A DNA stretch of 64,000 nt from the NCBI GenBank assembly GCA_051362555.1, contig CM120646.1, positions 3,658,001 through 3,722,000 of the forward strand, written 5' to 3'. Numbering within the stretch: the stretch's first letter is position 1; each line of letters starts with the position of its first letter. The DNA is from Lingula anatina (Eukaryota > Animalia > Brachiopoda). Below are positions 6,382 through 33,414 of the stretch, one piece after another. Below the pieces are notes generated by a model. It was given only the letters and a program-made list of their open reading frames with translations. It did no database searches and was not told where the DNA came from. Both the position numbers and the translations under genes were made by a program.

Positions 6382-9300
6382 CTCAATATTTGTAACAGCC
6401 TGTGCATATGCAGATAGCATAAGTCCATGATGTCTGTGGTCGGCACCATCAAACATTCTAGCCTGCTCCATCATGTCTTCATAGAAGCCAATACTATCCT
6501 CTGCATAATAAATAACTAATTGATAATCGTGATAACAATGCTGTTTCTAAAAATATTAAAACAAAAGTTATACTTGAGATTTATAACTGATTGTACTGTT
6601 AATAACATCTACATGCTATGATTTGCCGTACTAAATGTCTTACAAACAACTAACACAACCGTGACTCCATTTTAAATGGATGTTTTCACAACTTAAATTA
6701 ATTTTTTCATCTACAACAGGTGACATGTTACCAAAAAGTCAAAACACAAAATCAAACAAATTAACTACAGTGGTAGTATACTCGACACATTTCTACGCCT
6801 GAATTTAAAATGAAACAACATACTTTGGAAAAAGTTGATGATAGGGTATTCTGCAAGCACAGCCACTTTGATAAAACTTTTGTAGCTGTCTTCAGTACAA
6901 TGCATCGCCTGTGTGAGCAGCTTCTCCAAGTTCTTCCATTCCACGTCCATTGTGGCAGTGGCAGTCTTTGAGTTCTTGGACTGCATTTGGACATTAACAC
7001 ACTGAAGAATATCTGCGAAAAACTTACTATAACGTAGCCTTACCTCTGAAAAGAACACAGTATGTTGACTTTAGAGACTCTAGAGTTCTCGTGGTAATGA
7101 GGGCTTATTTCCAGTGAAGGTATTGTTTTATGTAGATCGATCCAGCTCCGTCAAGACTCTTGCTATATGATATCAGATTAACAGATAAGCATGCCTCTCC
7201 TTGTTTCCAACATACCCGTACAATCGCCAGCTTTCTTGTATTCTTCGCAAAGGCAAGGGGGTTGTGTTAATCTGTTGATCTGGTCGCATTTAGCGAGAGA
7301 TCCCATGGAGTTGGATCCATCTACGTAAAACAACAGTTTCGTTGGAAATGAACCCTTATGCTCAAAACGATTTAGTCCTCTAAATGTGAATTTTGCTTCT
7401 ATTCCTTTGATATTACCATAAGCTCAGTAATTTCCTAAACTGCAGATAAAATTGACATCATCTACTTGTATTCAGAAACCTTTTAATACTTTGATAAAAC
7501 TTACCTGGCATTTCCCTTATCCGCACATGCTTTTCCACATATTCTCGTATCAACGAGTTGATGTCGTATCTCATCTTTTGTCTCTGCACTATGGACAATC
7601 CTGTTGATTCTTCTTGTATAATTGACACTCTTGATAGTTCTTTCACGACTTTAACGCCACCAGTTTCTTGCTTGATGTCTATGATATATATATTTTCCAT
7701 ATTAATTACGAATAACAATGGTACAACAGTAAATGCAAGCTGACATTTACATTGGGAACACAAGTTCGCACATTTAATTTTTATTGACGTGTATTAGAAA
7801 CAGTGTTAGTCTTGATGTGAATACTAACTAATTCACTAGCGCGAAAGATTTGGTCTTAAATGATGTTTGAAAATCACCCTTTGGCAATTGGACAATTAGC
7901 ACTTACTTGACAAGAGACCACCTTTTATCAACTCACACAATGGCCCTCTGGTTGGCTGAATGTGTGAGGGGGAATAATTGCTTTACCACTGTAGTGAAAG
8001 TTGGACTAATTATAGGCTTTTCTCACTGGGAGTTAGGTCGTTGTTGAACTTAAATACAGATCCCGTCCATTTTAAGATCACTCTGATAATCCTAAAGACC
8101 ACGTCAGACCAGTTCTGATCTGAAATTGCACTTTAAGACCAAATCAGGAGCACTAGTGCAAGCTTCGTCAACTCTTACCATGTGCAATACGATACACGAT
8201 ATAATAGAAGGCTTTTAACCTTCAACATGCACCATGTCTTTACTTGTATAAAATGAAAGTTTATTGTTTACTGTGAGAGCGAAAGAGAAAGAAAGAAAAA
8301 AGAGAGGGATAGAGTTAGGTTTAACGGCTGTTTCACGATCAGGGGTACAAAATAGGGGTCACCTTGAGTGAAAAATCATCCTTGATGCATGTGTTTTATT
8401 TTGTAACAAGCAAAAAGAATAACATCTTAACTATGAAAACCCAAAATTGTAGAGCACAACAACAATTAGTTTATGTGTTATGTTCAAATTAACATGACAC
8501 CCCTTTGGCTATGATTAGGGGGTACGGACACTTCACGTGCAAGAAACTGATGCTTTTATAACTGAAATAATATATTTTTTCCTGCTATTTGTGTCAATAT
8601 CAAATGAAAAATATTAAAATAAAGATCCAACAATTGAAAAGAAATAAAAATAAAACAAAAAAAGGAAGTTTTTGGAGAATCACCGCACTCCAGATAAACA
8701 GTTAAATGTATTCTTTCATTTGTAATGTCTTTAGGGTCAATTTAAATAAATCATGGCTGTTTGTGCTAATGCCTGGCATCAGATATGGATCGAGAAGAAC
8801 AAGGCTATCCAAAGACTCAGGAAAGGACATCCCATAGTGACAACTGGCAAAGGTTTTGGGTTTTCCACCTTGGATGGATGGATGGATGACTATGAACGTA
8901 ACTTGAGTCTCATCATTCTCAACATCTTGAACCTTAACACAAAATCAAATATATATAAATAAATATACACGTGTGTGTGTGTTTCAAGGTAATTTCCTTT
9001 AAAACTTATTAATACAGAAATATAACATATGAATGATTTTACACTTACTTTTTTCGGAATTTAAGTAGAAAATCACGGTAAACACAAAATTGCCATGGCA
9101 ATATCAACAGTAACTAAAACAAATATTTACCATGTAAGAGGTCAGTTAAGAAACTGAAAAAAACTAAAATATTAAATTAGTATATAATGAAAATAAAGGT
9201 CAGTTTGGTCTTTACAGAACTCTGCAGCAAACTTCTTCAGACCTTTTGCTTTGAGCGCAGCGTTACAACAAGGCTGACAAAGACATGTCCTCCGATTAGT

Positions 9301-12300
9301 CTCAGAGACTTTTTGTACTTGCTTTGGACGTAGCTTACAGAATGATGTCAGCCCTATCTTATCTCCTGGGTGTAGTTGTTTGCAAAAGCATCTTCCAAAG
9401 TTAGTGTCACATAATGTCTTTGAACCAACTCCGAGCCAACTTTCATCGCTGCTCTCTTGTCTGGAACCTCTCGGCTTATTTCAGCGCTCAAGTAGAAGTT
9501 TCTCACCCTTTCTTGGACACTTTCTGGTATCCTGTCTTTTCTTGGAGTCCGTTTTTTTGTTTTCCACCAGTGTGTATCCCTTAACTGTGACTGTTTGGAC
9601 TTCACTTCAAGATGTTTGCTCAGATTGGCCCTCTGCCTGTATTTGCCGCTTTTGAAAACTACTGACTTCAAGATGTTGTATGCTGTGCGTTTTTCAATAT
9701 AAATATCGGGTATATTTGGCAATATAATTAAATCAATGTTTTTAATTTTAATGCAAACAATAGCATCTTTATTGATATTATTTCTTTGCAGAATTTTTCT
9801 TGCTTGGCTTTAATTAATTAGTATTATTTTATCATATATATTTATTTTCCATATTTTTATCTAAGCATTAGACATGAATACATTGTATATAATTTAGAAC
9901 AATATTTTGTGCCATATTTTGAAGTTTTAGCATCATTGAACAGTAGTCAGTTATCCAATGGATAATGTATAACTTGGGGGTACGGACACTACAATAGGGG
10001 TACGGACACTACATTTGGCACGAAATTTGTGCATATCTTTTAATAATAAGGGGTTATGTGCAATTTTTTTCCTGCAAAATAAATGTCAGTGTAGACATTA
10101 TAGAATAATAAAATCAGACAGAATATGCTGTGATTCCTAAATAAAATAGATAGGGGGGTACGGACACTACAAAAAATAGGAGACACCAAGGGGTTCATGA
10201 TTATAAATACCATAGCATTAATAATAAAGGTTACATATGCACAACTCCTTTCTTATGTTTAAGTCATAACATGGTAAATTCATCTTATTATCACATAGGT
10301 GATTTCAAAGTAATATTTGGCCTTATCAAATATGTTTTTCATTGCATTAACAAAAATAAGTAAAATGTGTACAAAAGCCTGTTTCAGCAAAATGGTTAAA
10401 ATAATTTTTTTCTCAGAACATATCTTTGGAAGAACCTGCTAGAAGAGAAGACATATGTTGTGGGAATTATATACCAATATCATATTCACCATAAATCATT
10501 GACATAAAGAGCTAGTGCATCATATGTATGACCTAAGTTGCAAATGACCCATCGTAACAGCTAGAAATAGGTACTTTTTGGACACATAATAGGTCATTTT
10601 TTTGTAAATTGTAGTCCGATTATTATAATTCTTTTTTTATTTTGCTCCTATGAGCAGTGTCTTTGGTATCAGTCTATCAGCAATCTCCAATCATAAATTG
10701 TTAATTTATCAGACACTTGTAACATTAACCACATTTAATTGTTCACCCTGATCGTGAAACAGCCGTTAAGGTTAGGTTTACGTCAATAGCGAAGAAACTA
10801 GACACTTATACAATCCATATGTATCATGTAATATAATAAGCAGAGATTTTCTTCAGAGGCAGTAATATCTTTTTTTATACCATTTATCTTACACTGTTTT
10901 ACATCGGTCAGATCACACCGTTTCATTCGGGTATATATGTTCTTTCGAAATGACACAGATGATATAAAACCATACAGAAAAAAAAAAAAAACTGTAATTC
11001 AAGCTTCCCAGGTCTTTGCTTCATCAGTGTCACAAACTTTCATCAAATATAATAATGATTTCACAAGTCGTCTTAGTACTCTGATGGCTGTATATTATAC
11101 AGAATCATACATTCAAGATGCATCTATCCATACCCAAAACTGCAGCAACGGCCTCTTCGCTGAAATGACCAGGGATATAACCAATGGCCGCTAAGTGCTG
11201 TCTGAAAACTTCCGTCAGTCGTGCAAGGTGATTTCTTATCACTTTATCTTAGAAAAAAATAAAAAATAAAAAAACACACACACACATATCAGATGTACTA
11301 ACTAAATATAACCATTTTATATATTGTCTTTATCTTATTTTTACTTAGATAAAATGTTGACGTGTGATTTTTTCGATGTGATCATTAAATAAAAAGAATA
11401 CTTTATTAAATTTCTTCTACATTACATTTGATCACTTTTAAAGAGAGACAACGTAACTTGAAAGGGGGGAAATAATTTCCTCAATAGATATGCCTTTCAA
11501 GATTTTCCTAAACACATTTTTTGTCGTCCAGTATCTACCTTGGTTTAAATGCATAAAATAATTTGTCCCTGAGCGTTTCATTATCCAAAGTAATCCTACC
11601 TATTCTCTCAAAGTCCGAGAAACTCTCGTCGCTAAGAGCTTTCAACCGCTCTTCCTTCATGAGCTCCAACATTTCACTTGGGCTCAGACTACCGTCGCGT
11701 AGTATGCTCCCTGGGAAAATTCGAGGTATTTTCAGTATATTTCACAAAAAATAACAATAAGAATAAATATATAATTATAATATTAAAGTTTAAAGATCAA
11801 CGTCCTTAATTGTGTCTTTATATTACATTTTAGATAATGCTCATATATTCGACTTACCTACGATGATTATAGCAAGAGGCAATCTTGCACATTGTTCTGC
11901 AAGTTTAGTCAAAGTATTTTCATCTATAAATGGACCTTCATTTTCTGCATGTGAGTGAGAAAAAGTGTCGAGTAATAACGCTTTTGCGTCTGAAATACAA
12001 AGTGGCATTAAACTCTGCTCAAAATATACTCTATTCAGTCTTTCAAACTGAAACTTGGTGCGGGAAACGATGAAGACCCTTACATCAGGGCACTGTTTTA
12101 TAACATCAAACACAAACGTGAGCAGCACATTCTGCAGGTAATGGCTGACGCTTCTCGTAGTTGCCTCAGACTCAGCAATGTGCTCGCATTTTTCAAAGAT
12201 CAACACAGAAGGCGAACTTGTTTTCAAATGTGTAATGATTTGTCGCTGCAGCATGCGCTTAGGGGTTGATTCGTCGGCAAGCAAAGGCACTCTGTCTTCT

Positions 12301-12554
12301 GATAATTCGAGAGCAACATACTTAAATAAGTCTTTTGCATTGTTTACACTTTGCATACACACGAACTTAGTACATAGTTCACCATTATACCTCTTTGTAG
12401 ACACCTGTCTCAAAATCTCCCGCGTTAAGCTCGCCTTACCAATGCCGGGAGGGCCATAAATGCCAAATATCCGATGCTGTGTCCAAGAATCCGTTACAAA
12501 TTTTATTTCTTTTTCTCGGCCGATAAAGGTAGGGAGTTCTAAATGGATCGCCAT
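6382..12554 (-). CDS. STAND (NB-ARC-like) NTPase-TPR gene, copy A; exons 1-6 only in this window
   Basis: GT-AG exons 12554-11858, 11710-11600, 11247-11134, 7678-7505, 7045-6824, 6500-6382 are all in frame. Exons 2-6 match copy B in size; exon 1 is one codon longer. Motifs FIGREKE, GPPGIGKA, VLIFEKCEH, VSRT, RLPLAI. TPR exons 7-9 are not found before the DIRS/Tc1 stack, so they are either left of the window or lost. Confidence 0.8.
7101..7355. mobile_element. MITE (Harbinger-like) in intron 4 of STAND copy A
   Basis: Imperfect ~40-bp TIRs GGGCTTATTTCCAGTGAAGGTATTGTTTTATGTAGATCGATCC / GGATCCATCTACGTAAAACAACAGTTTCGTTGGAAATGAACCC. Absent from the homologous intron of copy B (~19140). Related sequence at ~38528-38750 and ~56120-56165. 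Confidence 0.7.
8322..10768 (-). mobile_element. TIR DNA transposon, Sola2-like, internally deleted
   Basis: Perfect terminal inverted repeat TAACGGCTGTTTCACGATCAGGG. TSD readable as AGGTT or TTAA. Transposase remnant 9722..~9240 (FYLSAEISREVPDK..QRHYVTLTLEDAF..FCKLRPK..RTCLCQPCCN). Repeated internal motif GGGGTACGGACACT at ~8518, 9977, 9997, 10156. Absent from the corresponding intron 3 of copy B. Confidence 0.75.
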
Positions 12555-14377: not shown

Positions 14378-17300
14378 TTAAAAATCTCTATCAACTTGTA
14401 CACCAAGTCCATTCAAACGCGTCACTTCCATTTTTGCCAACATTTCGTTTTTCGTCGATGCTTTGACCTCACCAGCCATCTTGTAAAGCTTTGCCAGTTC
14501 CTTATAAACTATGAACGGCGTTTTAGACCTTGGGAATTGCTCATGAACCTGCGGAGTTAATTCAGCAGCTTTTTCAAAGTTGAACAGACTTTGTTCATAT
14601 AGATTTCGATACTGATCACAGTTTAGAACTTTTTGGTTTGGCCTACCAGTCGCCTTGGGCATAGTGTTATGTTTATTCGTGGACAAAATGCCATCGTGGT
14701 ATCCAAACACTTGCTCACACCCTTTGCTGTTGTTTTCAGTTATCACAGTCTGTCCATTTGGTGCCACGTTTTCTTGGTCGATTCGCTGAGCCACTGCCTC
14801 GTATATTTGCTCAGCCTGTGCCTGTCCTAAATGCAGCAGGTGCTCAGCCAATGTGAAATGATTAGGGGTATGTTCCCTTCGGGTGTCAACAGCTTTCTGA
14901 AAATAATCCTCAGCTTCAGGAAACTCCTTTTTCTTCATACAAACAAGTCCAAAATCATCATAAATGAGAGCTATTTCTGTCGTCTTTCCAATTCGCTGAC
15001 ACATAGCTAATGCCTCCTGCAGCATAGGCAAAGCTCTCTCAGTATCCCCCTTTCTGACGTAAAACATCGCTGTGTTACTTAGTGAGTCAACCACGGCTAA
15101 ATTGGGCTGTTTCATAAATTTTCGTTTGTATTTCAGACCAAGTTCAAAATTCTTGAGTGCTCGGTCATCATCTCCCTGCTCAAGATATGCCATTCCCATA
15201 TTGTTGTACATACCACCGATGGAAGGATGTTCTCCAAAGCTGGATACGCGTAACTCAAAGGAGTGCATAAAATAGCGTATGGCCTCTTTAAGCTTTCCTG
15301 AAATTATTATAATAAGGGCAATTGTGATATCAATCATTTTTTAGCTTATAAAATATAAAAAACGAGCTGAAATTCATATACACACACTGGACAAAAGAAG
15401 TGTCACCCCTACTGAGCCAATACTATGGGGGAGATAAATGACTGTGGAATGATATGCTCCTGGTATCATTTTATTAACATCAAAATTCACAAAAAATCAC
15501 AAAATGAGAACAAAATATACATTCTACCAAAATATGCAGTTTCAAGTCCAAAATTAGTACTTAGTGGCATAGCCACGTGACCTAATAATAGGTGCCAGTC
15601 TACGAAGCAAGGTTTCATATAATTGTCTGATGCGTTCAGGGCTTATGCTGGCCCAAGCATGAAACACTGAATATAGTTTTTTGCTGGTTAGTCGGGCATT
15701 TGTAAAAAGTTTTGACATATCATTCAACACATTTTCTATTATGTTTGCATCCGGACTCTGGGCAGGCCACATCACCCTGCGAATGTCCTGTTGGTCAAAC
15801 CAATCATCAACTGCTCTGGGCCTGTGACAAGGAGCATTGTCATCCTGGTGAACAAATGGATAATTCCTGTCACCAAACATGTTAGTAATAGATGGTAGAA
15901 AGCCTGACTCCAAAACATCGATATATTTCTAGTGATTCATGTTTCCACTAACCACTATCAATTCGCCCAAGCCATGGATGCTGATGCAGCCCCACGCCGT
16001 GATGAATATGCTGCTTAGGGTTCGAAAATTCAGTGCATGTGGTTCAAATACTTTACCAGCAGTTTGCCAGCATAGTACCCGTTTGTCATCAGAGGTCAGA
16101 CCAAAGCGACACTCATCAGAAAAAATATATAGGACCAATTGTCATGAACTGCCCAGTTCCAGATCCTGTTGACCCTAGTTTACTTTACGTTGCCTGTTTT
16201 GTAACGATATAAGAGGTTTCAGTCTTGCTACCCTGCTGTACGCTCTCTGAGCATGTAACCGACGCCTAGCAATTTTCACAGACACATTCTTATGTGTGAA
16301 ATTGTTCCACTGTGTTGTCAACTGACAAGCAGTGTCGAACTTTGACAACCTCGACATCAAAATCAGTCGTCGGTCTTCACAGCCAGTATTATTTCTTGGA
16401 CGACCCATCAGAGGCAATTTGTCTCTTGATCCAGTGTTTCTATACCGAGACCAGACCCTCTGCACGGTTTTGACTGAACAATTCAATTGTATCGATATTC
16501 TGACATTGCTTATATTCCGCCTCTTGAGGTTAATAACTTGCACCTATAGCCGTTAGATAATTGCCTGTATCTTGCCATATTGGAGGAAGACAGGAATAAC
16601 ATTTGCTGTACATGTACAAGACCAACAATACAATTCCATGGTATAGCGGTTTTATACTCATTAGTCACATTATAAGTAGACCAGGCATTATAAATACCCA
16701 AGATCTGCCTACTTTCATTACTCTGAGTTAGGGGGTGACACTTCTTTTGTCCAGTGTGTGTACGTATACTCCTAAATGTACCACACATACTGGTAGCCTT
16801 TATCACACAACTGTGTTCATTTCCAATTTTATGCTCTACACTGTAGTTCAAAGGCGCTAAAATTCTGCACGTGTATATAAAGTGATGATTTTACTACTCA
16901 CCCATCCCTGTAAAGACGAGGCCCAAGGTCGAAAGGGTTTGACACATAACAAGGTTTGTGTGCATACCACCATCCGTTTCCAATTTGAATGCTTTCTGAA
17001 GGTACCTGTAAATACAACATCATCTATATTTAAAGGTACATATGAACCGGTGGAGCATGGATTCCCAGTAACACATATAAACCAATTCTACTACCTGTAG
17101 TTTCTTATACAACTCAAATAACTTCGATATATGCCAAGGGATAAACTGATTAAACCACCCGATCACCCATATTAGAGCTTTAGAGTACTCCCTTCTTTAA
17201 AGTTTTGGTCAGACGTTTAACTTCTTATCTAACCCTTTTTTTCTGCCCCTTTTAAATACAGCATAGAAAGCTAGGAGAAAAATCCGCTCAAATATGATTT

Positions 17301-19571
17301 TCGGGTAATATTAAACAATAAATTTGGGTAATTCTCCTAGTTATACTGTTTTGAAACTATATGCTGATATTTGGTTGGCTTTTGTTGCAAAACATTGACT
17401 TTATATGCATCTTAAAGGTTACATTACTTATGTAACTAAAAGCCAACATCCTACATGAGTCCTATAGGACACTATGGGACCCTAAAGAAATGATATTGCG
17501 CGTCCTATAGACTTCCTATTCAGAAGACATGCTCTATAGGACCCCAGAGGTTTTTGGGCTAATTTCCAATGAAACGACCAACAGGACTCTATAGGAATAC
17601 CAGAAAGTTATGTGTCAAATGTAAAAAAATTGTTTTATCTTGGAAGAAACGATCGAGTCTTAAATGTAATCACCTTATTAGAACACTGATAGATTCAACA
17701 AAAATTAATTCCATCACAGAGTGGGTTGGCGCAAAAGCTAAAGCTCATCCTTAACCTACCATTGTGACTTATTCAGGTCACCAGTCTTGTAGTAATTCCA
17801 ACCCAGGTGCTGATACAGAGAGGCCATGTCTATAGGAGTTCCCTTGACGGAAAGAATTACCCTCGCCTTCTCATAATAATCTATGCCTTTTTGTATATCT
17901 CCCTGAAATATTACAAAGCCAGAACTACAATACTAACTGTTTATGACCTTATTTGTCGTAAATACAACCGTTCAGCATAACTGGAATAATGATGGAATAT
18001 ACATGTTATTGCAATTAAATGAAAAGGCTTTGTGTTTGACATATGGGTACGAGTGCATACGCAAAGCAACATCCTGGTGACAAATAATGAGATAAAAAAT
18101 AAATAGATGAAATACCGAAACTAATAAAGAGAAGTACAGTAATAGAATGACAGAAAATAAGTAGCAGATTTAAACCTAGCAGAACACAAAACGTACAACA
18201 TCTAAGTTAGAAGTGAATACAAAATACCTCATCTTAACTAACCACTCATGGTGAGCTGTAAGACACATCGGATTCAAAAATAACATTTATTATATATGGT
18301 CTCATATACATTTGGAAAGTCATGCAAATTATATACCTTAAACTGATTATTTATTTATTTATTTACCTCAATATTGGTCACCGCCTGTGCATATGCTGAT
18401 AACATAAGTCCATGATGTCTGTGGTCGGCACCATCAAACATTCTAGCCTGTTCCATCATGTCTTTATAGAAGCCAATGCTATCCTCTGCATAATAAGCAA
18501 CTAACCCATAATCGTGATAACAAAACTGTTTATAAAAATATTAAAATAAGTTTTATACTTGAGATTTTTGAATGATTGTTCTGTTAATAATATCTGTATG
18601 CTTTAATTCGCCCAAATAAATGTCCTTCATGTATAAACAACTAACGCAACCTTGGCTCCATTTTAAAATGACGTTTTTACAACTGAATAAATTCATTTCG
18701 TCATGTAGATGTCATGGCAAAAATCAGGAAATACATATTCACAATGAAATCATCAAATACTTTGAAATGAATAAGACTTAATACTATAGATACAAAACAC
18801 CAAATGAAACAAATTTACTACAGTGAAATTATACTTGTGACTTGACACACTTAAAAAATAACATACTTTGGAAAAAGTTGATGATAGGGTATTCTGCCAG
18901 CACAGCTACTTTTATAAAACTCTTGTAGCTGTCTTCAGTACAATGCATCGCCTGAGTGAGCAGCTTCTCCAAGTTCTTCCATTCCACGTTCATGGTGGCA
19001 GTGGCAGTCTTTGAGTTCTTGGACTGCATTTGGACATTAACGCACTGAAGAATATCTGCGAAAAACTTACTATAACGTAGCCTTACCTCTGAAAAGAACA
19101 CATTATGTTGACTTTAGAGACTCTAGAGTTCTCGTGGTAATGAATTGATGTACTCATACTCAACACGATTTAGTCCTCTAAATGTGTATTTCGCTTCTAT
19201 TTCTTTGATATTACCATAAGCTCAGTAATTTCTTAAACCGCAGATAAAACCGACATCATCTACCTGTGTTCAGAAACCTTTTAATACTTTGACAGAACTA
19301 ACCTGGTAATTCCCTTATCCGCACATGCTTTTCCACATATTCCCTCATCAACGAGTTGATGTCATATCTCATCTTTTGTCTCAGTACTAAAGACAATCCT
19401 GCTGATTCTTCATGTATAATGGACACTCTTGACAGTTCTTTCACGACTTTAACGCCACCAGTGTCTTGCTTGATGCCTACATGATATAATGCTATAATGC
19501 TATATATATATAACAAGCGTGAGTGTGGAACAGAGTGCTCAACAGTCCGGAGCATTTGTACACAATTGCAA

Positions 19572-19610
<39 letters not shown>

Positions 19611-21045
19611 AAGACATGCAATTATATACCCATACCCAAAACTGCAGCAACGGCTTCTTTGCTGAAGTGACCAGGGATATAACCAATGGCCGCTAAGTGC
19701 TGTCTGAAAACTTCTGTCAGTCGTGCAAGGTGATTTGTTATCACTTTATCTTAAATTGAAAAAGAAAATAAATAAAACAATTATATTGTCTTGGTTTTTC
19801 CGAAATTATCATTAAAAAACAATATTCTATTATCTTTTTTTCTACATTGTATTTGGCCACTTTTAAAGAGAGACAAAGTAACTAGAAAGGGAGAAATAAT
19901 TATCTCAATAGATATGCCTTTCAATATTTTCCTAAACACGTTTTTGTCATCCAATATATACCTTTCTCCAAAGTAAACCCACCTATTCTCTCAGAGTCAG
20001 AGAAACTCTTGTCACTGAGAGCTTTCAGGCGTTCTTCCTTCATGAGGTCCAACATTTCACTTGGGCTCAGATTACCATCACGTAGCATGCTCCCTACAAA
20101 CATTCGAGGTATATATTCTCAAGAGAATGTTTTAACGAAATGAAAAAAAATTATAGATAAATAAGTAATGTTTAGAAAGTTAATAATATCCTCTCTCTTA
20201 ATGGCTAGAAAATTCGAGGTATTCTCAACATAACATTACAGTACAATAATTGGATGAATAAATAAATAGATTATGACAATGAAGTTTAAAAATCTACTTT
20301 CTTAATTGCCCAAAATATTACTTCCCGGAAATATATATAAATTCAACTTACCTACAATGGTTAAAGCAAGGGGCAATCTTGTACATTGTTCTGCAAGTTT
20401 GGTCAAAGTATCTTCATCTATAAATGGACTTTCATTTTCTGCATGGGAGTGAGAAAAAGTGTCGAGTAATAACGCCTTTGCATCTGAAATACAGAGTGGC
20501 ATTAAACTCAGCTGAAAATATTCTCTGCTCAGTCTTGCAAACTGAAACTTGGTGCGGGAAACGATGAAGACCCTCACGTCAGGGCACTGGGTTATGACGT
20601 CAAAAACAAACGTGAGCAGCACATTCTGCAGGTCATGACTGACGTTTCTCGTGGTTGCCTCAGACACGGCGATGTGTTCGCATTTTTCAAAAATCAACAC
20701 ACAGGGAGCAATATTTTTTAAATGCTCAATGATTTGTTGCTGCAGCAGCTCAGGGGTGGAATCGCCGGTAAGCAAAGGCACTTTGTCTTCTAATAATTCG
20801 AGAGCAACGTACTTAAAGAAGTCTTTTGCACTGTTTACTCTTTGCATCGACAAGAATGTAGTGCATAGGTCACCATTATACGCCTTCGCAGACACCTGTC
20901 TCAAAATCTCCCTCGTTAAGCTTGCCTTACCAATCCCGGGAGGGCCATAGATACCAAATATCCGATGCTGTGTCCAAGAATCTGTTATAAGCTTTATTTC
21001 CTTTTCTCGCCCGAAGAAAATAGGGTGCTCTAAATTGAACGCCAT
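14378..21045 (-). CDS. STAND (NB-ARC-like) NTPase with C-terminal TPRs, copy B; complete, ~866 aa
   Basis: Exons 21045-20352, 20093-19983, 19749-19636, 19476-19303, 19088-18867, 18485-18367, 17902-17760, 17005-16902, 15297-14378 sum to 2601 nt with consistent phases. Walker A GPPGIGKA, Walker B VLIFEKCEH, RLPLAL, winged-helix-like region. TPRs: LYQHLGWNYYKTGD, YNNMGMAYLEQGDDDRALKNFELGL, LSNTAMFY, YDDFGLVC. Confidence 0.87.
15381..16760 (-). mobile_element. Full-length Tc1 transposon (frameshifted transposase) in the last intron of STAND copy B
   Basis: Exact 29-bp TIRs CACACACTGGACAAAAGAAGTGTCACCCC (15381-15409 and 16732-16760) with TA on both sides. HTH plus GRPR, FSDECRF, QDDNAPCH, SPDANIIEN spread over ORFs 16175-16543, 15929-16138 and 15554-15913. 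Confidence 0.95.
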
Positions 21046-22218
21046 GTTGTTTACTATTGACACGTGATGCAAAGAAAATGTGACCTTTCTGCAACAAAAG
21101 AACCAGCAGTGCGAGTGCGTGCAGTTGGTCCTTTTATGAACTAGGGCTGTTTAACGTAACACACCCATATGTCAAAGTACAGAGGTACTGGCATTATTAT
21201 CTTTTAGTTGGGATACCACAGAGTATGTTATTTACAGCTTTTGAAATGATACACAAGTCAGCAAAGGCCTATTCTGTATCAACATAGTGTTGTCATTAAG
21301 TGGTGAAATATATGAAAATGTACCCATGTCTAAATTGGGCAATGTACTTGTACGTGCCCACGAAAATTTCTGGCAGTCACATAGGGATCCTATTTTAATT
21401 GAGTGTTGGGGGAATGGGCAGACATGGATATATAGAAAAAAAACTGCGCTAGCGAGTTAATTTCCTGTAGCCTCGTTTCGGTCCTTGTGCATACGCACAA
21501 TATATACGTACGTACAATATATACTATGAAAAAACTGACGTGATTGAAAAATGTGCTGAGTGGATAATGCTCCTGCACGGGTATAGTGTGCCAACCCAGA
21601 CATTGGTGTCTTGCAGGTACGCGCATGTATTTATCTCTAGCCTATCACATATAAATGGACACATGCAGCATTGACCTAAATAGTCTAAATAGCGAAATGC
21701 TAGGGAAATCTGCTTATTCATTGCAGATCTTAACATAGATTGGCATTTTAAACCATGAATAGAGCGAGAAGTGTGGTGTTTTGTGAAACAACACTACCGT
21801 CTACAAGTGCCTATTCTACTGGAAAAGTATTAGAACATGTTTACATGAGCTACATATGTGACTGTCGGTATAATCACTAGCATATATAGCGTGTATCAGT
21901 GTACAGCATTGTAATGCAGAAATAAATGAAAGATATCTTTAATGAGTGAACAATGTCACAATGGACGTATGGCTTGTGTACACTTTTAGGGAACTCTGTC
22001 AGAAGTTGATAAAGCCGGTTGATTTAATTTGTTTGTAGGCCATAAGAAAGAGTGACCTAGATCAATCTCCGATGACTCATAAATTTCATATAATAATCAT
22101 AATCATATGCAGAAACTGCCAATATAGAAACTGGGAACTTTGGCGTAAGCTAAATATAGATTGTTCAGATTAACTGATTCCAAAATTCAGAATTGGCGCA
22201 GAGGGATAGAGAGGAACC

Positions 22219-25200
22219 ATGACACAGTTGGGGTACACGTTTGTTGGTCGTGAATTGGAGATGGACGAAGTTTTGAATCGATGGGAAAAGTTTCGCATAT
22301 TTGGAATCTACGGCCAACCTGCCATCGGCAAGACCGAATTTGCCGAGAGAGTCGTACGAGAAGTTGACAAGCGCTACAGGGAAGAGAGGTCTGTAGCAAG
22401 ATGCCTGCCGCCTGGGAAAACCAGCCACTGCGAAATTGATCGAACAGATAATGACAAAATAGTGCCCCTTTATGTGGCGAGGGTGGATCTCACAGGAGTA
22501 CAATCTGCACTCCAGATTATTGAACGATTCAATCTAGCCACGAAGTTTCCTACATCGTTCAACTACCATGACCCTTTCGACGAGGCGTCGCAGTTTAACT
22601 GGAAGCACGACTTGGCTGCGCATATAAAGAACCATTTTGATAAGGTGTGCAAGAGATACGTCATCTTAATAGATAATTGCGAGCACGTTGTCGTTGCTGA
22701 TGAAAAGAATTTTACTGAGTCCAAGCTTCAGAATGACTTAACAGCCGGTACGAAAGAGGATACGGATACCGACCCTGACTATCTGCATCAGGATAGGCCC
22801 ATCCAAACATTGCTACTGAATCTGATTGGAGACCTAGTCAAGCAATGCCAAAACCTATGGGTATTATTGGTATCAAAATACAGTTTTAACTTTGCCTCCC
22901 TAGGCAGAGTTTATCACCCAGTCCGATTGTCTCGATTGACCACCGAAGAAGGAGGGTCATTGCTGCAGGAGGTGTGCGACTCGGTCAAGTTCAGAAATGA
23001 CCAACTTGAGGAATTAGTAGAAAAGTGTGAAGGCGTGCCCCTACACATCATAGCTGTAGGTAAGTCCTGTATGTGTCTTGTCATAATAATAATAATAATA
23101 ATAATTGGATGACTAAAAAGCACAATCTTCAAATTAGCACGGGTCCACTTATTGGCGAGATCAAACCGTTAAATATGACGACTGACCTAGATACACGTTG
23201 GGACATACACGGCCATATAAGTGCATTAAATGCGTAAAATCAACAAAAGACTTTGAATAAACAGCCTTACAAGTGGAACCAGGATTTATTCTGATTGACG
23301 AATACGCTACGATAATGGTTCAATCCACACCGTTTAGTTTGTCAGGTAGAGGGGTCGATCGGTACGAAGTGGGTGACTTAGGTTCATTGGTATCATATGG
23401 AATCTCATAAATTTAGCCAGGAGTCAGATTATGTGTGGTAGCACTCTCAAATCAGAAGCTTTCATTATGTTTGTAGTCATTATATACGGTAACACCCTAA
23501 CAGATGAGAGTATAAACATCCATATAGTGAAAACATATGATATAAAGCAACACTTTTGCGTCAATATATGCATTTTCAAGAAATAAGTAAAGTTAGTTTC
23601 GTAATATTGAGTAACCTGTTAACAAATGACGTCAGAGGTCACCTGAGGTCAAATTTGAGGCATTTTTATGAAAAATAAACTTGTGAAGTTATTTTTAAAG
23701 AGACTGTTAGTCAATATTAAGGGCATGGTAATTTCTGATAATTTCTGCCCTCATGAAAGAGATTTCATGAGATTTGACAGTTTACTGTACAGTATGAGAC
23801 ATTTATGGATCACACAAATACTTGAAGTGTTTTTGAATTAGGGGATATGGGAGGAAAATACTCACCATTTAATAGGTTTGCTACATGAAGGTATGAATAG
23901 AAGTTAGGCTCATTTATTTAGCTGAAAAATTGTTCTAATAGGTAAAGTAACAAAAATGTTATTGTGCAATCTAGCTTTAAAGTAGGTCAAAGTTCACATG
24001 CGGTCAAATTTGAATGATTTTCAGGCCTCTGTCTAAATATTATAATATCCCTTAAATATAGACTTATTTACTAGAAATAATCTAAAACATTATTTTTCAT
24101 TTCCATTCACTTTAATGAAATAACTTATGGGTTAATTTCTTCCCGAAAATGACTCAAATTTGACATTACATTACTTTTGCCCTTTGATTTGCTTTAATTT
24201 CTACATCACACATAATATTAATTATTGTTGTTTCTTCACCTGTTATGACAGTTATTTTCATATCTAGCAAACCTAATAAATGGTGATCATCTTTCCTACC
24301 CCAACCAGATATTCAAAAATTGAACCAAGCGCCCGCTATAGCACAAACGCAACCATTTTCACCTGCCTTAAATGTGATCTGTCTCTTTCCTTATTTTCTT
24401 TAAGGGACCGAGTTGAATGGCAGTGAACATTTGTACAAAGCAGGTGGATTGCTAGAAGTTCTTAGGGAAGATAGACTGCGGTCATTAGGAGAAGAGGGTC
24501 TCGCCGACGACGAGAGAGCGGGTATAACGGAATTTATTCTCCTTTTCAAACAGATACCAGGCAACACAATTGTACAGTCATATTTAATGGAAATGTTCAT
24601 TTTTAGTCATTCTGCTCCGATTGGGTGGCGCTGTGGTTACCTGTAATTAATAACTGAATGTTTTGAGATTTAACTTTTCGATAGTTTGAATGTACATGGT
24701 ATTCCTCTGAACACAAAGAGCTTAATATACTCCTCGAAGACCTTTGATAACGGTTATAAAGAGCACATGAAATAATTCACTTTTTTAGATTTCATTTTCA
24801 GAGAAAATAGAAGCGAAGGAATTCAGTAGGCTACCACCCAAATTACAGAAAAATGCGTTATCACTGGTCAACTTACAGAATGGTTGCAGTAAAGAAGACA
24901 TGGCAGCACGGACAGGTATAATAAGACTCTACGAATACATCTTCTTAATGTATAGACCCGTCTTAGAAATATGAAATAACCTAAAACATTAAGGATGTAT
25001 TTATTTTTTCTGTTTTTGTGGCGATTTTCCTAACCATACTTACACCATACTTACGCTATGACTATTAAACGTGTTTCAACTTACGACAGTGGGGAAATTG
25101 TCTTGAGTAGCACAGAAAGCAAGGTTTATTGTGCATTAATATTGCTTTCAATACATTAAGCATACATATTAAATATCAATGTGTGTGCGTGAGCGTCAGT

Positions 25201-26569
25201 GTCATTATGCAGTGTTTTGTGTAAGTGTATTTTTCTACTTATCACAACGTGATGTATTGTCTGTAAACCTCTGTAAGGAAATCTGTAAGCAGCATTGAAT
25301 TGCGTTGTGTGTGTTGAATAAAAATTGTCACCGAGGTGCACGAATAAAAAAAAGATATAAATGTCAAGCAGATTTTAATAGTGATGATATGGACTATCTA
25401 AAATATGAGCCATTTGAATAATGAATCTTTTTGCGGGGTGCACTTCGTAATCGATTGTCTTCTTGACCTCTAATAATCACTGACCTCTCTTTCAGGATAT
25501 ACGTCGACTCCCATGGCAATGCGAAATGTGGGTGCTCCTCTTATCAGACGTGGCAAGGCTGACTGCAATCCAAATAATGAAAAGATAGCGCTTCTGCCGT
25601 TCACAGAGGAATTTGTCGCGAACCGAACAGGACAGAAGTTGCCCAAAAGTATGTTAGTTGATCCTTAGCACTATATATACAGACGTGTTAACTCCTATTT
25701 TGTTTCGCAATATCTACTAAAATATCAATAAAAGGAATTATATATTAACAAAAGTGCAATATATAATATGATTTGTTCACCCATTTAAAGCGTTCATTTG
25801 TTTGTATATTCATTCAATTACCTTTTTTATATTATGTTTGTGTTTCAAAAATATTTTCTTATATTCTACAGAACTTGCTGAAAACAGTGCGAATGAAAAT
25901 TATTCGAGAGAGTCTAAAACGTCAAGTTTACCTCAAGTCACAGAGGCCAATCCCTCAGTAACGTACCATCAAACACACACTTCTGAGGTCGAGGCTATCG
26001 GCACAACTGTGCAAGTCACCAAGTCCAAACAGGAGTCGGCGCCAAAAACAAGCGACAAGAAAGCAAAACGATCAAAACTTACTGTGGCCGAGCGTTTAGA
26101 ACAATCCGTGCGACCAAAAACGGCATCTATTAAAACGCCACTGCACTGTGCAAAAGCGGGTCCAATGCTCTTTCCCAATTACCCATCGTCACTAAAGGAA
26201 CGATATGTGACGAACCCGTATCTCAATACTCGATGTTGCTTATCTGACACAGAATCTGTAGTCTCTGATGTAATATTACCTGGGACGTACAACGAGCTTG
26301 ATACACAGCTCAGGAAGTGTGAAGATTATGAACAGAGATCTGAGACAAACCCAGTCAACTTTTCCTCCCCACTGGAGTGGAATATCTTGCCAGATATATC
26401 ACGACCAGGCGGGACAGGGCCGAGTTCATGTGATGACAATAACGACGGTTACAGTGATTTAAGTACACACGTGGACTTCTTTGGTCCAAAATTGATGGCA
26501 GATGGAGGTTTGAATAACTCGTTTAGTTCGACTGACAGCAATCAGACTCCAAGAAAGGAACTTGTATGA
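22219..26569 (+). CDS. STAND NTPase gene C: canonical P-loop, no TPR, Ser/Thr-rich low-complexity C-terminal tail, ~640 aa
   Basis: Exons 22219-23059, 24405-24521, 24802-24915, 25496-25648, 25872-26569 (1923 nt, all phase-1 introns at positions homologous to B). Motifs FVGRELE, GQPAIGKT, VILIDNCEH, GVPLHI. Exon 2 LREDRLRSL..DERAG aligns to B MKEERLKAL..SERIG. AATAAA at ~26631. Confidence 0.8.
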
Positions 26570-27324
26570 ACACAGCCCACATACGTTATTTAAAGGGATA
26601 ATAACTCTTCATATGAGATCTATATTTCACAATAAAAACCTTGTGAATAACTCATAGAAATATAATATATTCTGTTTTACCACAAAAACAGCAGTTATAG
26701 CTTTTATTCTGATATCTGAACTTGTCTTTAGACCACGTGACCTCCACTGATGTCTATACTCTGTTAAAATCTCTTAAGAGATTTTAACAAAAAACCAAAC
26801 TTTTTAGAAAAAAACCAGGGACTAACTTTGAATGTAAAAATGGATTCATTAACCATTGGTAAGTATGGGAAAATTGTTGTTTACTCCAGGAAAATTCATT
26901 TTTTGGCCGAAACGAAGAGTTATTATTGCTTTAAACTGAAAATGAGCTAAGCGTGATGAGAGAAAGAGTGAGAGAGAGAGAGAGAGAGAGAGTGCAATGC
27001 ATTTTCTCACTTTTTTTTCTGAAGCTTCACACGGCGTGTGTATATATGTACATGTGATATACGTGTTAAAAAGAATGAAATATTTATTTAAAGGGTTAGA
27101 AATATTATTCATTGTTTGTGATTCAGTCGAATTTTTATTCAGATGAATAAAAGTATTCTGGTGTATGTTAGCCATTGAGTCGTTTTCCACATATATAAAA
27201 AATCTAATTTGTGCGGAATCTGAAAACGCCATATGGTATCATTGTGTTGGATAAATATAAACCAACAAAGAAATCACGAAGTTTGTGAACATAAGTCATT
27301 GTATCTGTTTCTCCTGAGAACATC

Positions 27325-27495
27325 TAGCTAGCGTATTGCAGAAATTTGGAAACACGCTCACCGGTCTCTTGACCTCAAGCAGAATCGGTCTTGTCGGGAG
27401 AGCCCAAGTTTGGGGGGGGGGGGTCCTAGTGGATAACAGACCAGGTTATAAATTGTGGAAATTTTTTTTTCGACACAGTGGTCTCAAGTTATCAG
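27325..27495. repeat. Dispersed repeat; inverted copy at ~61947-62103
   Basis: TGTCGGGAGAGCCC..GTGGATAACAGACCAGG.TATAAATTGTGGAAA..GGTCTCAAGTTATC matches the reverse complement of ~61947-62103. Confidence 0.7.
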
Positions 27496-28197
27496 TCAGT
27501 TATAGCTCGTGGCAATATTAATCATGACAATTCCTTTGTAGTTTGTAAATTAATTTAAAAGATGATATTAGCCTTTTAAATCTTCAGTATGAAAAATATT
27601 GCCAAGCTTCATAGCATTAGGCGATATGCGTAAAATTATTTGCACATCACTACGTGCTCGAAAAAGTGCTAGGACGGAAATTGAATAGATAATTATATTT
27701 TGAGATTTTAAACTGATTTAGATTTGGCCTTTGTAAAAAAATTTCAATTAAATTCAAATAAAACGACAAAGCTTTGTTTACTTCTATGAAAATTTATTGG
27801 TAACCACAACATTTATGAACTTTCATATATATATATGCTCCACATTAAAATAATGAAAACAGACATCGATGCATTTTCATTTGTGCAGCACAAGCACGAG
27901 GAAAGCAAAAGCTGAAAAGTTTATCTAATGCCAGTTTTCCTTCTTTTCATTTTGAAGAGCAATCCTGTCTCAGCACAAATAAATACACAAAATGATTGAA
28001 TATAAACAAGTCATTATGAGTACTAGAGATGTCTCTCCCTTTACACAGTTAAGAGTCCTCTATTTTGCTTAATATATATAAGAAACTATACTAAAATTAC
28101 CGTTTAGAAATAAGGTGAATAGAATTAAATAAAAGAATGAAATCCAATTACCATGGAATGGATTTTACCAATGCCATAAAATGAAAACTGTCAACTG

Positions 28198-31100
28198 TCA
28201 AATTGTTTCATAAAAACACATTCCCGTATTCCCTACAGCTGCGTCGTCGCCTTTCATTGCCAGGAAAGGGGACAGAAAGCGCTCCACTGGATACTGTTGG
28301 TTGTCTATTCCATATTTCCTGCAAACAGCCAACAGCTTTTTCTTCGCCTCATTTACAGATTTCCCCTTTACAGCTACCTGGCATAACAGGTTCTCAAAGG
28401 GCTCATTTTCTTTCAACTCGGACTCCATTGAAAACAAAATTATTTCCCCTTTTTCATGAGCCTCGGCAAGGATCTCCAGTGTAGCAATGCCCGGTCGCGA
28501 TAGTGCCTTGGCGTGGGCTGTTGTGGTACACATGACCCCTATGAGCTGGCACCTTGGCTCCAACGGTCGGACGCTGGGCTGTATCCCACACGCAATTAAG
28601 AAATTTAGGAAAAGGATATCTGTTTCGAAGACGGTGCGTACCCAGTTCCGGTAATGGGCGCCGGTTACACGTCCGTTGATCTCGATCAGTTTCGGTCCCG
28701 TCGGCGCCATTTTAAACTCTACACTATACACTCCCTCAGTGAGACCAACCGCGTCAACACACTGCTTTGTGGCCATTACCATCTGTCGCTGCTTGTCAAG
28801 GGGTAAACTTGACGGCATACATGACGAAGTCTCAAAAAAGAGAGGAAAGCGGGTAGGTCCACAATCAGAGATGAATGCCGCTAAAATCTTTCCTCGAAAC
28901 ATGACGACCTCGACTCCATGTTTGGTTCCTAGTGCATACTCTGCTAGGTGCATTTCCTTGCCGTAACCAATACCAAACGCTTTTTCATCTGTGTTCTTTA
29001 ATGTTTTCTGAATGCTGTTGAAGCATTTCAGACATTCTTCCTCGTCTTTGACCAGATGGACACCGAAGGAATATGCCCCGTATTCCGGCTTCAGAATGGC
29101 GGGATACCTTATGAGATTTGACGATCCCTTCACATCTTCAGGTCGGACAATTTCGCGTATCTTGACGGCATATAGATGAGGTTTTGGCAAGAAAGAGCTG
29201 TAGGTTGACGATGCCAATAAAGCATTTTGGCTCAAACTTTTCTTCTTAGCCTTTCTTGAAGCCTCGGGGGTATTTCCAAGCATGCGCAGTGCTTCGCACA
29301 CCAGAGCCGTCAGAGGAACGTAATTCTCGTCCACAGTCATGCATCCGTCTACGTCTAGGCCTTGTGTGCGCAGTAGATGGACAATTTTCTTGGTATTTTC
29401 ATCATCGTGGCTGTGGTCTTCTATATCACATTGGATAAACTTGTATACCCTTTTCACCGCACTGTGATTAGGATCTGGGTCAATCAAAATGATCTGAAAT
29501 GGGTTAAAAACACGCACATGCATTAAGGAGCATTCATTAACAAGACTTCATTTTAAGAAAGCTATGACCATTACCTTGATACCAATAACAATTCTGATAC
29601 TTTTCTAATAGAAGTTCTTATAAAAATAAATTTCATATATACTTTAAACGGTAAGTTTACGACATGATATATATTTAAAGTAAATTAAATAAGCAAAACG
29701 TATAACATTTTTTTCAAATCACGAACCCTCTAAATACAAGTGTTAAATTTGTATTTCTACTGCTGAAAAAATTAACCTTAACATTGTACTCCTCGGCAGC
29801 TCTCCAAACGAACTCTTTGCGTATCCCTTCTCCTCCTCCAATAAGGAGGATTTTCTTTCCTCGAAGAAGAAATCGCTGACTACGGTTGACCATGGTTGCC
29901 ACCAGGGACCGCACGCTGCTTCCAAGCTCGGCAGGGTTCTGCAATTCCCACATCTGTGTGTTTGCAATGATTTTCCTGCTGTTATTGACACTGACAGCAA
30001 CGGCCTCATAACTGCCGGCTTCTTGCTAAGTCAAGACAAAATTGACTCCTGAAAAATATAATAAATCTATCTAGAAAAATGTAACTTTTTATCATGCAAT
30101 AAAGCCAGAGCAAGCGAATCTAGTTATCACCATTTCTGAGTCGTCTTTGTACTGCGCAAGCCTGTTACCTCATATACACTACTTAAAAGAAGTTAGGAAA
30201 TGTTTAGAACAGCTGATGTTAAGAAAGAAGGTTTACTGTTCAATAACTTTAAGCGTAAAAATTGCAAATTATAAATTATAATTGTTTGCCACAATATTTA
30301 AAAAAATCATGCATTGTGTTTGAAGCCATGTAATTTTATCTTTATTTTTACTTTATTCACCCGCCAAAATAATAATTATAACACTAATGTTTTCTTTTAA
30401 CAAGCAAAAATTATTTGTATTGCAACACAATTAAGTACAGAAATGACATCCAATACAGAATGACGAATTTGACTTAGAATTGCTAAAATTTAATAACAGT
30501 GCATGGTCATATTTCAAACTTTTGCGCCTTATATAGCGGGTGTCCCCTACGCCTTTTTTATTAGTATATTATTCGCATTCAATAAAAAATGTTAACTTTA
30601 GAGATATACACAATATTGTTTTAAATCTTAAATTATTCCATGATTTACCTATAATGCCTGTTCTTGCTAATAATCCTCCGCGTTCTTCTTTGTTGAGACA
30701 CTCCTCGTGCTTCATCCAATTTCCCAATATATCCTCCGCTTTTTCCTTGATCATTGAACGTATCTGCAAATCATGATATGAATTAGATGGGCTTTTACAG
30801 ATTTTGTTGCATAAATGTGTTGCCATCACCTCTTTGCTTCTGCAGGGATATCAGCACTTTAATTAAGTTACTTCAACGACTCACCTTGTCAATTTCGGAT
30901 CTCTTCTGTATCCCCCACTGGATAAGAAAGCTTTCCAGAGACAGTGGTAAAGTATTGTCGCAATGGAGCGTTCTGTCCGCCTGACCAATGCCGCAGACGA
31001 TGTCTGAAACCAGCTGATTCCCATCAGGAGTGCCGCAGACGACAGCTCGTATTGTGCAGGATAAGTCCTTGCTCTTGATGCTGACTAAAAATAAATGATT

Positions 31101-33414
31101 TGCACTAACAGTAGAAAAAATAATAATGCTGATTAAGCTGTTGTGTGATCTCGTTATGAGTAAAAGCATGTGACTTATATTTTAGATAAACATGAAATTG
31201 GAAAGCGCAACCATAATATTAACTGATTATGGATAGTTTTAGAAATGGACAGATTTAAAAATGCTAGTATTTTGCCGTTTCCTATAGCGAAACGTACCTG
31301 CCTGTTCCTCGTAGTCAAGATGAGGGACTGGTAATGGTTTAAGGGTCTCACAAAATGCCTCCACAACTATGCTCTCCCCCTCTTCCAGAACATCCAGACC
31401 TTGACATACGGCACTGTAGACGCCAGCTTGGTCATTGACAGAAATGTAGGACACTCTTCGTGAAGCACTCGCGCCTGCCTTGACAACTACCTAAACAATA
31501 AGAAGTTATTTTGTGAGGATTGTATGGATGAACACCGGACATGCGCATGCACAAAAAGCATATAACATTTTGAGATCTTGGCACGATCAAGTGGGAAGAG
31601 TGGGTGACTGAATGTTAATTTAATGATCGTCGATAATTGAGTTTCGAGGAAATACATCTTATTCGCCCGCCTTATATATATATATCCACTAATAACATAT
31701 CCACATGCTTGTGCGTTTTTTTCTCCTCTCACAGATAAAGAAAAATATCCTATTATTTAAAAGAATGCAAATATGGTAAAAACAATTCACTTAATATTCT
31801 CTTTTATTGTTTTTGAGAGAGAGAGAGAGAGAGAGAGAGGAGACTCGCTTATTATTAACATTTACCTTTTTCATCCCTTTTCCAAGCAAAGAACTTATTA
31901 ATACAGGCAGTTCCTTTTTGATCTTTTCTTTTCCGTCTTCTCTATTTTCAATAGCGACCACATAAATATTGCGTCTCTCCTGGTTGTAAGGCGTTCGTGA
32001 TCTGTACAAAAATGCCAGCGTATCGGGATAGGCAACACCAGCGTCCGCAACCAGAACACGAGTGAGAATTCGATCATCCAAACACTTCATCAAATCTTGC
32101 GTGACTCCCAGTGGGCATTCTAAATCTTTTTCATAATCCACGTTGTAACTGCGCATGCAAACATTTGTTTTCTCATCATCTGCAATAGGATATGTATTTC
32201 AAATTTTTTGCAAAAAAATTCTAATCCAGTGAATGAATTTTCGGGTTTAGAAATGCAAAAAATTATATAATTTATCATATAAAATTGCATAAATAAATAG
32301 AAAGAAATACAACTGAATAGAAAGATACTTGAAACAATTAATTGATAAGATAATAAGCGTGTGGTTTGAAAAAATTAATAAGACATTGCTATAGGCTTTA
32401 AAATATATACGAAATATGAATAGTCAAACAGAACGACGAATGAATACAGATTAATACACGATGACAGCTATTGTCACATGATGTAATATTTAACTTCTGG
32501 ATATTATACCTGTAGCAAGGTTCATGAAGTAAGTGACACGACGAGGTGGAGTGAAGATGTCCAAAAATGTTCGACCACAAGAGTCAAATGTGACAGCCTT
32601 GTGTACTCGTAAGGTTTGCAGTTCTCCTTCATTGGTGGGTTCTTTCTGAAGCCATGTTAAAGAGGGTACCAGTAACATACCATCAGGACACTGCTTCCCA
32701 CCCTCTAAACACAGGTTCAGACAGGTGAGAGGTTCCCCCAGTACCACCATCGTGATCTCTTCAACCGTTGACTTTGGTCGTGGGTTCTGTAAAAAAAATG
32801 CACACGTTTTAGAGCAGCGTCATCCACAATTTTAAAATATAGGTTTCATCATACATGCCTAATCCCCAATAAATATTTCGCATCATTTACAAAGAATAGC
32901 AAATGAGCTGTCCCCATATTCAAGACTTTGTTTATTTTACATACGATACGGACGGTGACATACCGCAGGAACACACAACAAAATATACTCTGTACATATC
33001 TCTTCGTGAATAGATATCGAACAGCAAATTAATTGTTCATCCTTTTATGACTGAAAGAAATAAACTACAAGGTATCCCCCCGGGCAAATCCAGGATCTCC
33101 GCGGGGCACCCAACGCACTGTCATGGAAGAGTGTGATATTGGGATTGAAATGCGAAATTTCAGGTATTTGCTACACATGAAAAATTACATCCGTGTGCTG
33201 CAGTGTCGCTTTTGGATGTGAGTTGACGAAGAGGACCGACTTTTGATAAGGTGTCGTGATGACATGGATCTCTGGATTTACCTTTGATGTTTGAAAAATT
33301 TCGTCTTACCTGCGTTCTCTCTACAGTTTCCGGCAAGTTGTAAAAACTCAGTCCTTGCTGCAAATCCTGCCAAAATAGACTTGTGTTGGTTTCTTTGATT
33401 GCGCACGCATCCAT
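28198..33414 (-). pseudogene. CARNS1: Carnosine synthase 1-like ATP-grasp ligase, copy 1 (one in-frame TAG)
   Basis: Exons 33414-33310, 32786-32510, 32179-31866, 31490-31298, 31084-30885, 30763-30649, 30048-29777, 29493-28198. CARNS1-type motifs LPET, LEGGKQCP..MLL, KAVTFD..RTFLD.FTPPRRVTYF, KEFVW, GPKLIEIN. TAG at 30028-30026 where copy 2 has CAG. Confidence 0.82.

Follow-up and report, generated by a model that had tools for sequence, protein, structure and literature searches.

Two divergently transcribed genes, here called B and C, encode NTPases of the STAND class in the brachiopod Lingula anatina. They lie in a 64,000-nucleotide stretch of contig CM120646.1 (assembly GCA_051362555.1, positions 3,658,001 to 3,722,000), which we call the window and from whose first nucleotide all positions are counted. 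Gene B (21045 to 14378, minus strand) is a STAND-TPR gene of 866 amino acids in nine exons (exons 1–5 at 21045–20352, 20093–19983, 19749–19636, 19476–19303 and 19088–18867; exons 6–9 at 18485–18367, 17902–17760, 17005–16902 and 15297–14378). Gene C (22219 to 26569, plus strand) encodes a repeat-less protein of the same NTPase class, with 640 amino acids in five exons (22219–23059, 24405–24521, 24802–24915, 25496–25648 and 25872–26569). Both reading frames are open, with no internal stop. The start codons at 21045 and 22219 are separated by 1,173 bp (21046–22218), a putative shared promoter, and this arrangement matches the head-to-head layout of plant receptor pairs.

B consists of an NB-ARC-type STAND NTPase followed by a helical domain, a winged helix, an arm and TPRs. 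In a Pfam scan, TPR_12 matches exon 9 at an E value of 1e-23; in exon 1, nSTAND1 scores above the Pfam cut-off and NB-ARC, at 22.8, just under it. Residues 1–408 of C comprise the NTPase (NB-ARC match of 24.3 bits, Pfam cut-off 23.5), helical domain and winged helix, and are followed by a polar tail of 232 amino acids in a single exon. This last exon has no Pfam match, TPRs are absent from C, and the window holds no TPR exon downstream onto which C could be spliced. The P-loop begins at residue 34 in B (GKA, with FEKCEH as Walker B) and at residue 32 in C (GKT, with IDNCEH). Neither gene carries an N-terminal effector (death fold, TIR, coiled coil (CC) or enzyme), although a far-upstream exon might still encode one. 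In Pfam scans, B-type proteins matched NTPase and TPR families alone, without an integrated decoy domain, and no LRR family matched the exons of B or C or their RefSeq relatives. The RefSeq L. anatina proteins P0012 (871 amino acids) and P0001 (646 amino acids) match B and C, respectively, in architecture; further relatives of C are P0002 and P0013. P0002 retains the architecture of C at 59% identity in the nucleotide-binding domain (NBD) and 40% in the tail, where short blocks are conserved.

RNA reads were taken from eight of nine listed runs, which come from three studies and are of low depth. Splice joints confirm introns 1–5 of B (five of eight) and introns 1, 2 and 4 of C (three of four), and a sixth B intron, intron 7, is supported by loose read ends at 17757 that carry exon 8 sequence. 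In the stranded run X6, B reads run in one direction only and C reads only in the opposite one. Read depth is zero over 21290–21879 in four of four runs. The layout, splicing, strands and domain content of the two genes are thus established. Four reads in run X9 skip B exon 4, the end of the winged helix, in frame (19088–19636), and four in run X6 displace the intron 5 joint by two bases (18485–18869); both may stem from paralogs. In runs X8 and X9, the sequence found at loose ends is that of P0002, a paralog of C. A Tc1-like transposon remnant (15379–16700; DDE_3 and a Tc3 helix-turn-helix) lies inside B intron 8, a 95% identical piece of it occurs near the window start (2641–3175), and its relatives are transcribed. 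Directly behind the C stop, a short repeat (26590–26934) with very high RNA depth and opposite-strand joints is probably an element similar to a miniature inverted-repeat transposable element that is present in many transcripts.

The normalized exon 1 depths of B and C co-vary (Spearman 0.83, P = 0.011, n = 8 runs); both are near zero in X1 and X2, and both peak in X6. This co-variation is weak, confounded evidence of co-regulation. The intergenic region contains one TGACGT and one AP-1-like palindrome, and no κB or ISRE consensus was found in 21046–22218. Of the co-expression from a bidirectional promoter proposed in an earlier, sequence-only description of the locus (the initial annotation), the co-varying levels are observed, and a shared promoter may be supposed.

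B and C are ancient paralogs, as the initial annotation held: they share 26% identity over the first exon and form sister clades (support 96/89) in the tree described below. Their divergence amounts to about 2.0 substitutions per site, yet they still stand head to head. Introns 1–4 are in phase 1 in both genes, and introns 1–3 occupy identical alignment columns. The fourth, near the end of the winged helix, is only near in position (12 columns apart in one alignment, about 1–2 in another), so that the claim of four shared positions holds strictly for three. Because many short relatives, apparently single-exon open reading frames, stop at the position of intron 1 or intron 2, the shared introns mark family membership and paralogy, not pairing. 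The divergent start codons, the motifs and repeats of each protein and the missing N-terminal effectors all agree with that first description; its ~230-residue tail is likewise present and polar, and is hardly of low complexity (entropy 4.04 versus 4.13 bits).

Predicted fold and nucleotide-binding sites

The fold of C was taken from an AlphaFold2 model of its RefSeq relative P0001, built on a 71-row mixed-family alignment (a single-sequence fold of C reached a predicted local distance difference test score (pLDDT) of 31.6). The model is confident over residues ~10–410, and from residue 425 onwards pLDDT is mostly below 50, which predicts a disordered tail. Its best structural match is CED-4 (2a5y: Z 23.7, root-mean-square deviation 3.8, 320 residues aligned), followed by the active NRC4, G10 and RPP1 resistosomes and the active apoptosome (Z 21.6–23). 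Over CED-4 and the active resistosomes together, Z is 22–24 and the deviation 3.5–4.1 across about 320 residues. ADP-bound Apaf-1, by comparison, gives Z 13.7 with just 217 residues aligned. Foldseek agrees with these matches. On this model, C is an NB-ARC-type STAND in an open state, B not having been folded as a control. The Atlas neighbours of B are cnidarian DED-NTPase-TPR clusters and bacterial AfsR/LuxR-type STAND clusters, with TM scores of 0.63–0.74.

Seventeen family tails were scanned for signalling motifs. TRAF6-type motifs (8, against 5.3 in shuffles; P = 0.16) and PxQx[TS] (6 against 5.0) were near expectation, and neither RHIM nor strict LxIS occurred. A minor TRAF2-type motif was found 29 times against 20.4 (P = 0.035, uncorrected, among related rows). 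An hxhSG repeat, defined post hoc, occurred six times against 1.0, in two oyster-clade proteins only and never in Lingula; each of these two tails carries it three times, and we take it to be reminiscent of IRF-docking motifs. The C-termini of P0038, P0046, P0054, P0055, P0058, P0107 and P0147, which are oyster- and scallop-clade tail forms, share an amphipathic-looking segment.

The initial annotation treated the opposite Walker states of B and C as an ancient specialization and B as nucleotide-independent, and neither view is supported. A degenerate sensor P-loop is a Lingula feature, because all 27 non-Lingula TPR rows of the alignment keep GKS/T; the first Walker B Asp is likewise kept in 24 of them, the others having Glu (two) or Lys (one). 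Judged from the alignment, the T-to-A change in B postdates or parallels its split from a B-type paralog in the window, D, that has GKT. B lacks the Mg-coordinating residue at two positions (T to A and D to E) and retains the P-loop Lys, K40, the GRE motif, the sensor-1 Arg and the GxP Pro (present in 40 of 40 aligned rows), and for these reasons B is likely to be hydrolysis-poor rather than nucleotide-free. C has its P-loop Lys at K38 and Lys in place of the sensor-1 Arg, together with GKT and both Walker B acids. TPR-less rows keep the P-loop Lys in 11 of 11 cases and Ser/Thr in 10 of 11.

A second site bears on the resting state. In the accessible part of a preprint, the MHD His is described as locking ADP in NLRs and AfsR (bioRxiv 10.64898/2026.09.02.748808). 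The equivalent column has His in 15 of 29 TPR rows versus 2 of 11 TPR-less rows, and the residue after it is Pro in 1 of 29 versus 6 of 11, the rows being related in both counts; C lacks this latch His. In 26 of 28 TPR rows and in all 11 tail rows, the P-loop starts among the first 60 residues, and a headless N-terminus is therefore the family norm.

Copies in Lingula and relatives in other animals

Two further B-type copies, on which the initial annotation was silent, bring the ratio of B-types to C-types in the window to 3 to 1. Paralog A (6382–12554, minus strand) has exons 1–6 open for 479 amino acids, with GKA; TPR exons 7–9 were not found within the window, and its ratio of nonsynonymous to synonymous substitution rates against B is 0.20. 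Paralog D (62610–64000, plus strand) is cut by the window end and has FEKCEH; its exon 1 is 87% identical to B in DNA and carries a 7-nucleotide deletion that shifts the frame. Upstream of D (61665–62609), homology to the B promoter is fused to homology to the downstream flank of C: the former ends at ~21589 and the latter takes over at once from ~27345, so that a 5.8-kb C segment is missing from the D copy and the C flank at 27346–27805 is common to the D block. On sequence grounds, C may have been either deleted from the D copy or inserted beside B after D split off. Both fit, because A, B and D form a trichotomy, mutually equidistant at 87–88%.

Linkage elsewhere was scored as co-location on one scaffold or contig, irrespective of coordinates and orientation. 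In RefSeq L. anatina, a 190,331-bp scaffold carries one B-type and one C-type (LOC106165773 and LOC106165845), and a 1,890,239-bp scaffold carries two B-types and one C-type (LOC106179958, 959, 973); the two may represent haplotypes of a single locus. Residues 1–160 of B show no difference from P0012, of the 1.89-Mb version, and residues 1–80 of C differ from P0013, of the same version, at 2 positions versus 14 from P0001. Residues 81–640 of C differ at six from P0001, of the 190-kb version, and the window is thus mosaic. This pattern suggests that the 5′ ends of B and C travel as one block, and therefore that the 1.89-Mb scaffold has the same head-to-head layout. Differences among P0001, P0013 and window C (residues 1–240) cluster in the NBD as a mosaic, and the helical and winged-helix parts are near-identical.

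A profile search gave 139 clusters at E values up to 1e-10, with 20 of 148 new matches named. Among those named, TPR forms come from Mercenaria, Ruditapes, Potamilus, Sinanodonta, amphioxus and Glandiceps and are mostly ~800 amino acids long when complete; TPR-less, polar-tailed forms come from Saccostrea (two species), Ylistrum, Mizuhopecten, Pecten, Argopecten, Mytilus and Glandiceps. Named members are annotated only as uncharacterised or under generic names. In P0028, P0045 and P0050, a single polypeptide has both TPRs and a long polar tail, as would be expected if B and C divide one job; one such protein clusters with a cuttlefish member. One 25,083,287-bp contig of Glandiceps carries both types, the two loci (LOC144441130 and LOC144441285) being 155 numbers apart; one is a TPR form and one is a tail form. 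The amphioxus relative P0020 has a DED just below the Pfam cut-off, and scallop P0058, outside the rows scored for P-loop position, has a weak DED.

A tree of 50 rows, mostly full-length and hand-selected matches, places the bivalve tail forms within a mollusc-containing clade (98/94) and the acorn-worm tail form apart, with a similar result under a mixture model. Approximately unbiased (AU) tests rejected a single clade of tail forms, or an ancient C lineage common to Lingula and bivalves (P = 0.030, 0.025 and 0.013). Tail forms therefore arose repeatedly, or partners exchanged sequence within lineages; the bivalve and acorn-worm tail forms appear to have arisen separately from Lingula C. A metagenome scan retained two loci from 226 pattern matches, one of which (L002, 3–2795) is an off-target bacterial NB-ARC-TPR protein with an N-terminal extension and highly repetitive TPRs.

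Elsewhere in the window, three copies of an ATP-grasp ligase (ATP-grasp_4; 28198–32819, 42370–46849 and 51424–52516, all on the minus strand) are 86–93% alike in DNA, and the third looks fragmented; we presume that they are carnosine-synthase-like. A fragmented reverse transcriptase/RNase H element with overlapping open reading frames, presumably DIRS-like, lies downstream of exon 6 of paralog A (3132–5470, plus strand).

A possible split receptor and its alternatives

Plants have well-documented head-to-head NLR pairs of sensor and helper; RGA4/RGA5, RPS4/RRS1, Pik-1/Pik-2 and CHS3/CSA1 are, like B and C, divergent, with a short shared intergenic region and deeply diverged NB-ARC-type partners. 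According to the available text of PMC9528088, the helper in RGA4/RGA5 and RPS4/RRS1 is autoactive and repressed by the sensor (RGA5, RRS1), whose P-loop is dispensable; Pik-1/Pik-2 and CHS3/CSA1 require both P-loops (PMC9528088 and the accessible part of PMC11298796). Unlike the plant pairs, B and C lack LRRs, a CC, TIR or RPW8 head and an integrated decoy; the putative sensor carries TPRs and the putative helper is repeat-less. In the comparison with CED-4 (and Apaf-1/Dark), it is CED-4, itself repeat-less and restrained by a partner, that the model of C resembles best. C differs from CED-4 in lacking a CARD and ending in a predicted disordered tail, and its proposed restrainer would be a paralog, not a Bcl-2 protein. 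B resembles the NB-ARC-TPR proteins of placozoans, cnidarians and fungi and the bacterial AfsR-like STANDs in its NTPase, winged helix and TPRs, whereas the B/C clade mostly lacks an N-terminal effector and repeatedly yields TPR-less tailed forms. NLRC4 belongs to the NACHT-LRR class and has a CARD effector. The available portion of PMC9975940 presents NAIP/NLRC4 as an animal sensor/helper STAND pair that forms a hetero-oligomer. This pair is of a different class from B and C, and its genes do not form a head-to-head NB-ARC/TPR locus. Descriptions of NB-ARC-TPR proteins exist for placozoans and Hydra (PMC6321704) and for fungi (PMC4986451). The literature searched, with most subscription papers outside its reach, held no paper on the B/C clade or on an animal head-to-head NB-ARC/TPR pair, so that the claim that no such animal pair has been described stands for the NB-ARC/TPR type and must allow for NAIP/NLRC4; Gerdol et al. 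2018 on Lingula immunity, also out of reach, may cover these genes.

The anatomy is confirmed and a pairing of B and C is plausible; the argument from their Walker motifs is weak. We assign a probability of roughly 0.4 to a split-receptor model, with B as sensor and brake and C as the executor that acts by way of its clustered tail. This model is favoured by the head-to-head position kept across a deep divergence, by expression on opposite strands at co-varying levels, by the RefSeq scaffolds with both types and the joint 5′ block, by the retained architecture of P0002, by the single-chain relatives and the common Glandiceps contig, by the match of the C model to CED-4 and active resistosomes, by the commoner latch His among TPR forms, and by the plant precedent. 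The TPRs of B would detect a trigger, and B would hold C off; once released from B, C would form an ATP-bound ring, and its clustered, disordered tails would recruit downstream signalling proteins. Having neither the arm nor the repeats by which STANDs are kept closed, nor the His of the MHD-equivalent latch, C would tend towards the open state, much as CED-4, which has no repeats, or RGA4 and RPS4, which are autoactive helpers. That B and C bind, that B represses and then releases C, that the tail is the output and that the pair serves immunity are likewise inferred.

Several observations weigh against this reading. The co-expression comes from three low-depth studies with reads of ~88%-alike paralogs counted in, and the open model of C stands without a control fold of B on a mixed-family alignment. 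The Lingula C tail contains no convincing signalling motif in the scan of 17 tails. The GKA of B is recent and Lingula-specific, D keeping GKT, and window B also lacks the latch His. Location on the same contig is expected from plain local duplication too, the TPR-less forms do not make one clade by the AU tests, and no molluscan TPR form was named from the oyster, scallop or mussel genera that have tail forms. Linkage is itself uneven, B and C sharing a scaffold twice in RefSeq and B-types, and apparently a C-type, also occurring alone: there is no C beside A or D, even though the D block has both C flanks; no B-type was found on the 131,726-bp scaffold of C-type P0002, in searches that would miss short models such as P0013; and L001, the other metagenome locus, is a TPR-clade exon 1 of the animal family with no partner in the 5.6 kb upstream.

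These unpaired copies also favour a nearly as likely account, that B and C are independent neighbours left by an old inverted duplication or a later C insertion and share a promoter passively, B being an ordinary effector-less STAND-TPR receptor and C a scaffold with a specialization of its own. The separate origins of the tail forms fit it, as does D, whose ancestral GKT and missing C suit an arrival of C after D split off. Head-to-head NLRs in Sordariales, moreover, are rare (13 of 225 two-gene clusters) and are not read as plant-type pairs in the accessible part of PMC12258605. Against mere neighbourhood stand the complementary domain loss of B and C, the scaffolds shared by the two types in RefSeq, their common contig in Glandiceps and the single-chain TPR-plus-tail relatives. 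A reversal of the roles is unlikely: receptor activity would then belong to the B-types, and C, as a truncated regulator, would enter B rings and poison or tune them, with a tail that governs localization or turnover. In its favour, TPR forms of other animals keep intact Walker motifs (27 of 27 with GKS/T) and have no N-terminal effector (P-loop among the first 60 residues in 26 of 28), so that some route of signalling must exist for them; C-types are the minority in the window, and tails differ wholly between lineages. Against such a regulator stand the loss of two Mg-site residues from Lingula B, the intact GKT and Walker B acids of C, and the active-like state in which C is modelled. Least likely is that B and C are partners in a role other than pathogen defence, for example in allorecognition, in the sensing of stress or in cell death during development. 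The differences among C versions, which are concentrated in the NBD (14 of 80 residues and 30 of 160) and show mosaic exchange, would suit such a role, as would the missing κB and ISRE consensus; immune loci, too, typically show turnover of copies and mosaicism.

Novelty lies more firmly in the wider family, with its recurrent tail forms, than in the pair. Tentatively, and with more doubt than the split receptor itself, we suggest an undescribed marine-invertebrate clade of STAND-TPR receptors that lack effectors and use a disordered C-terminal tail for signalling, and that split at least two to three times (in brachiopods, pteriomorph bivalves and acorn worms) into a TPR sensor and a repeat-less tailed executor, the two standing head to head in Lingula. 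Family members also occur in farmed oysters, scallops and mussels, about whose intracellular receptors little is known. If B and C are partners, animals would have reached the plant-type head-to-head sensor/helper design independently, with a different output: a C-terminal disordered tail in place of an N-terminal death fold or TIR.

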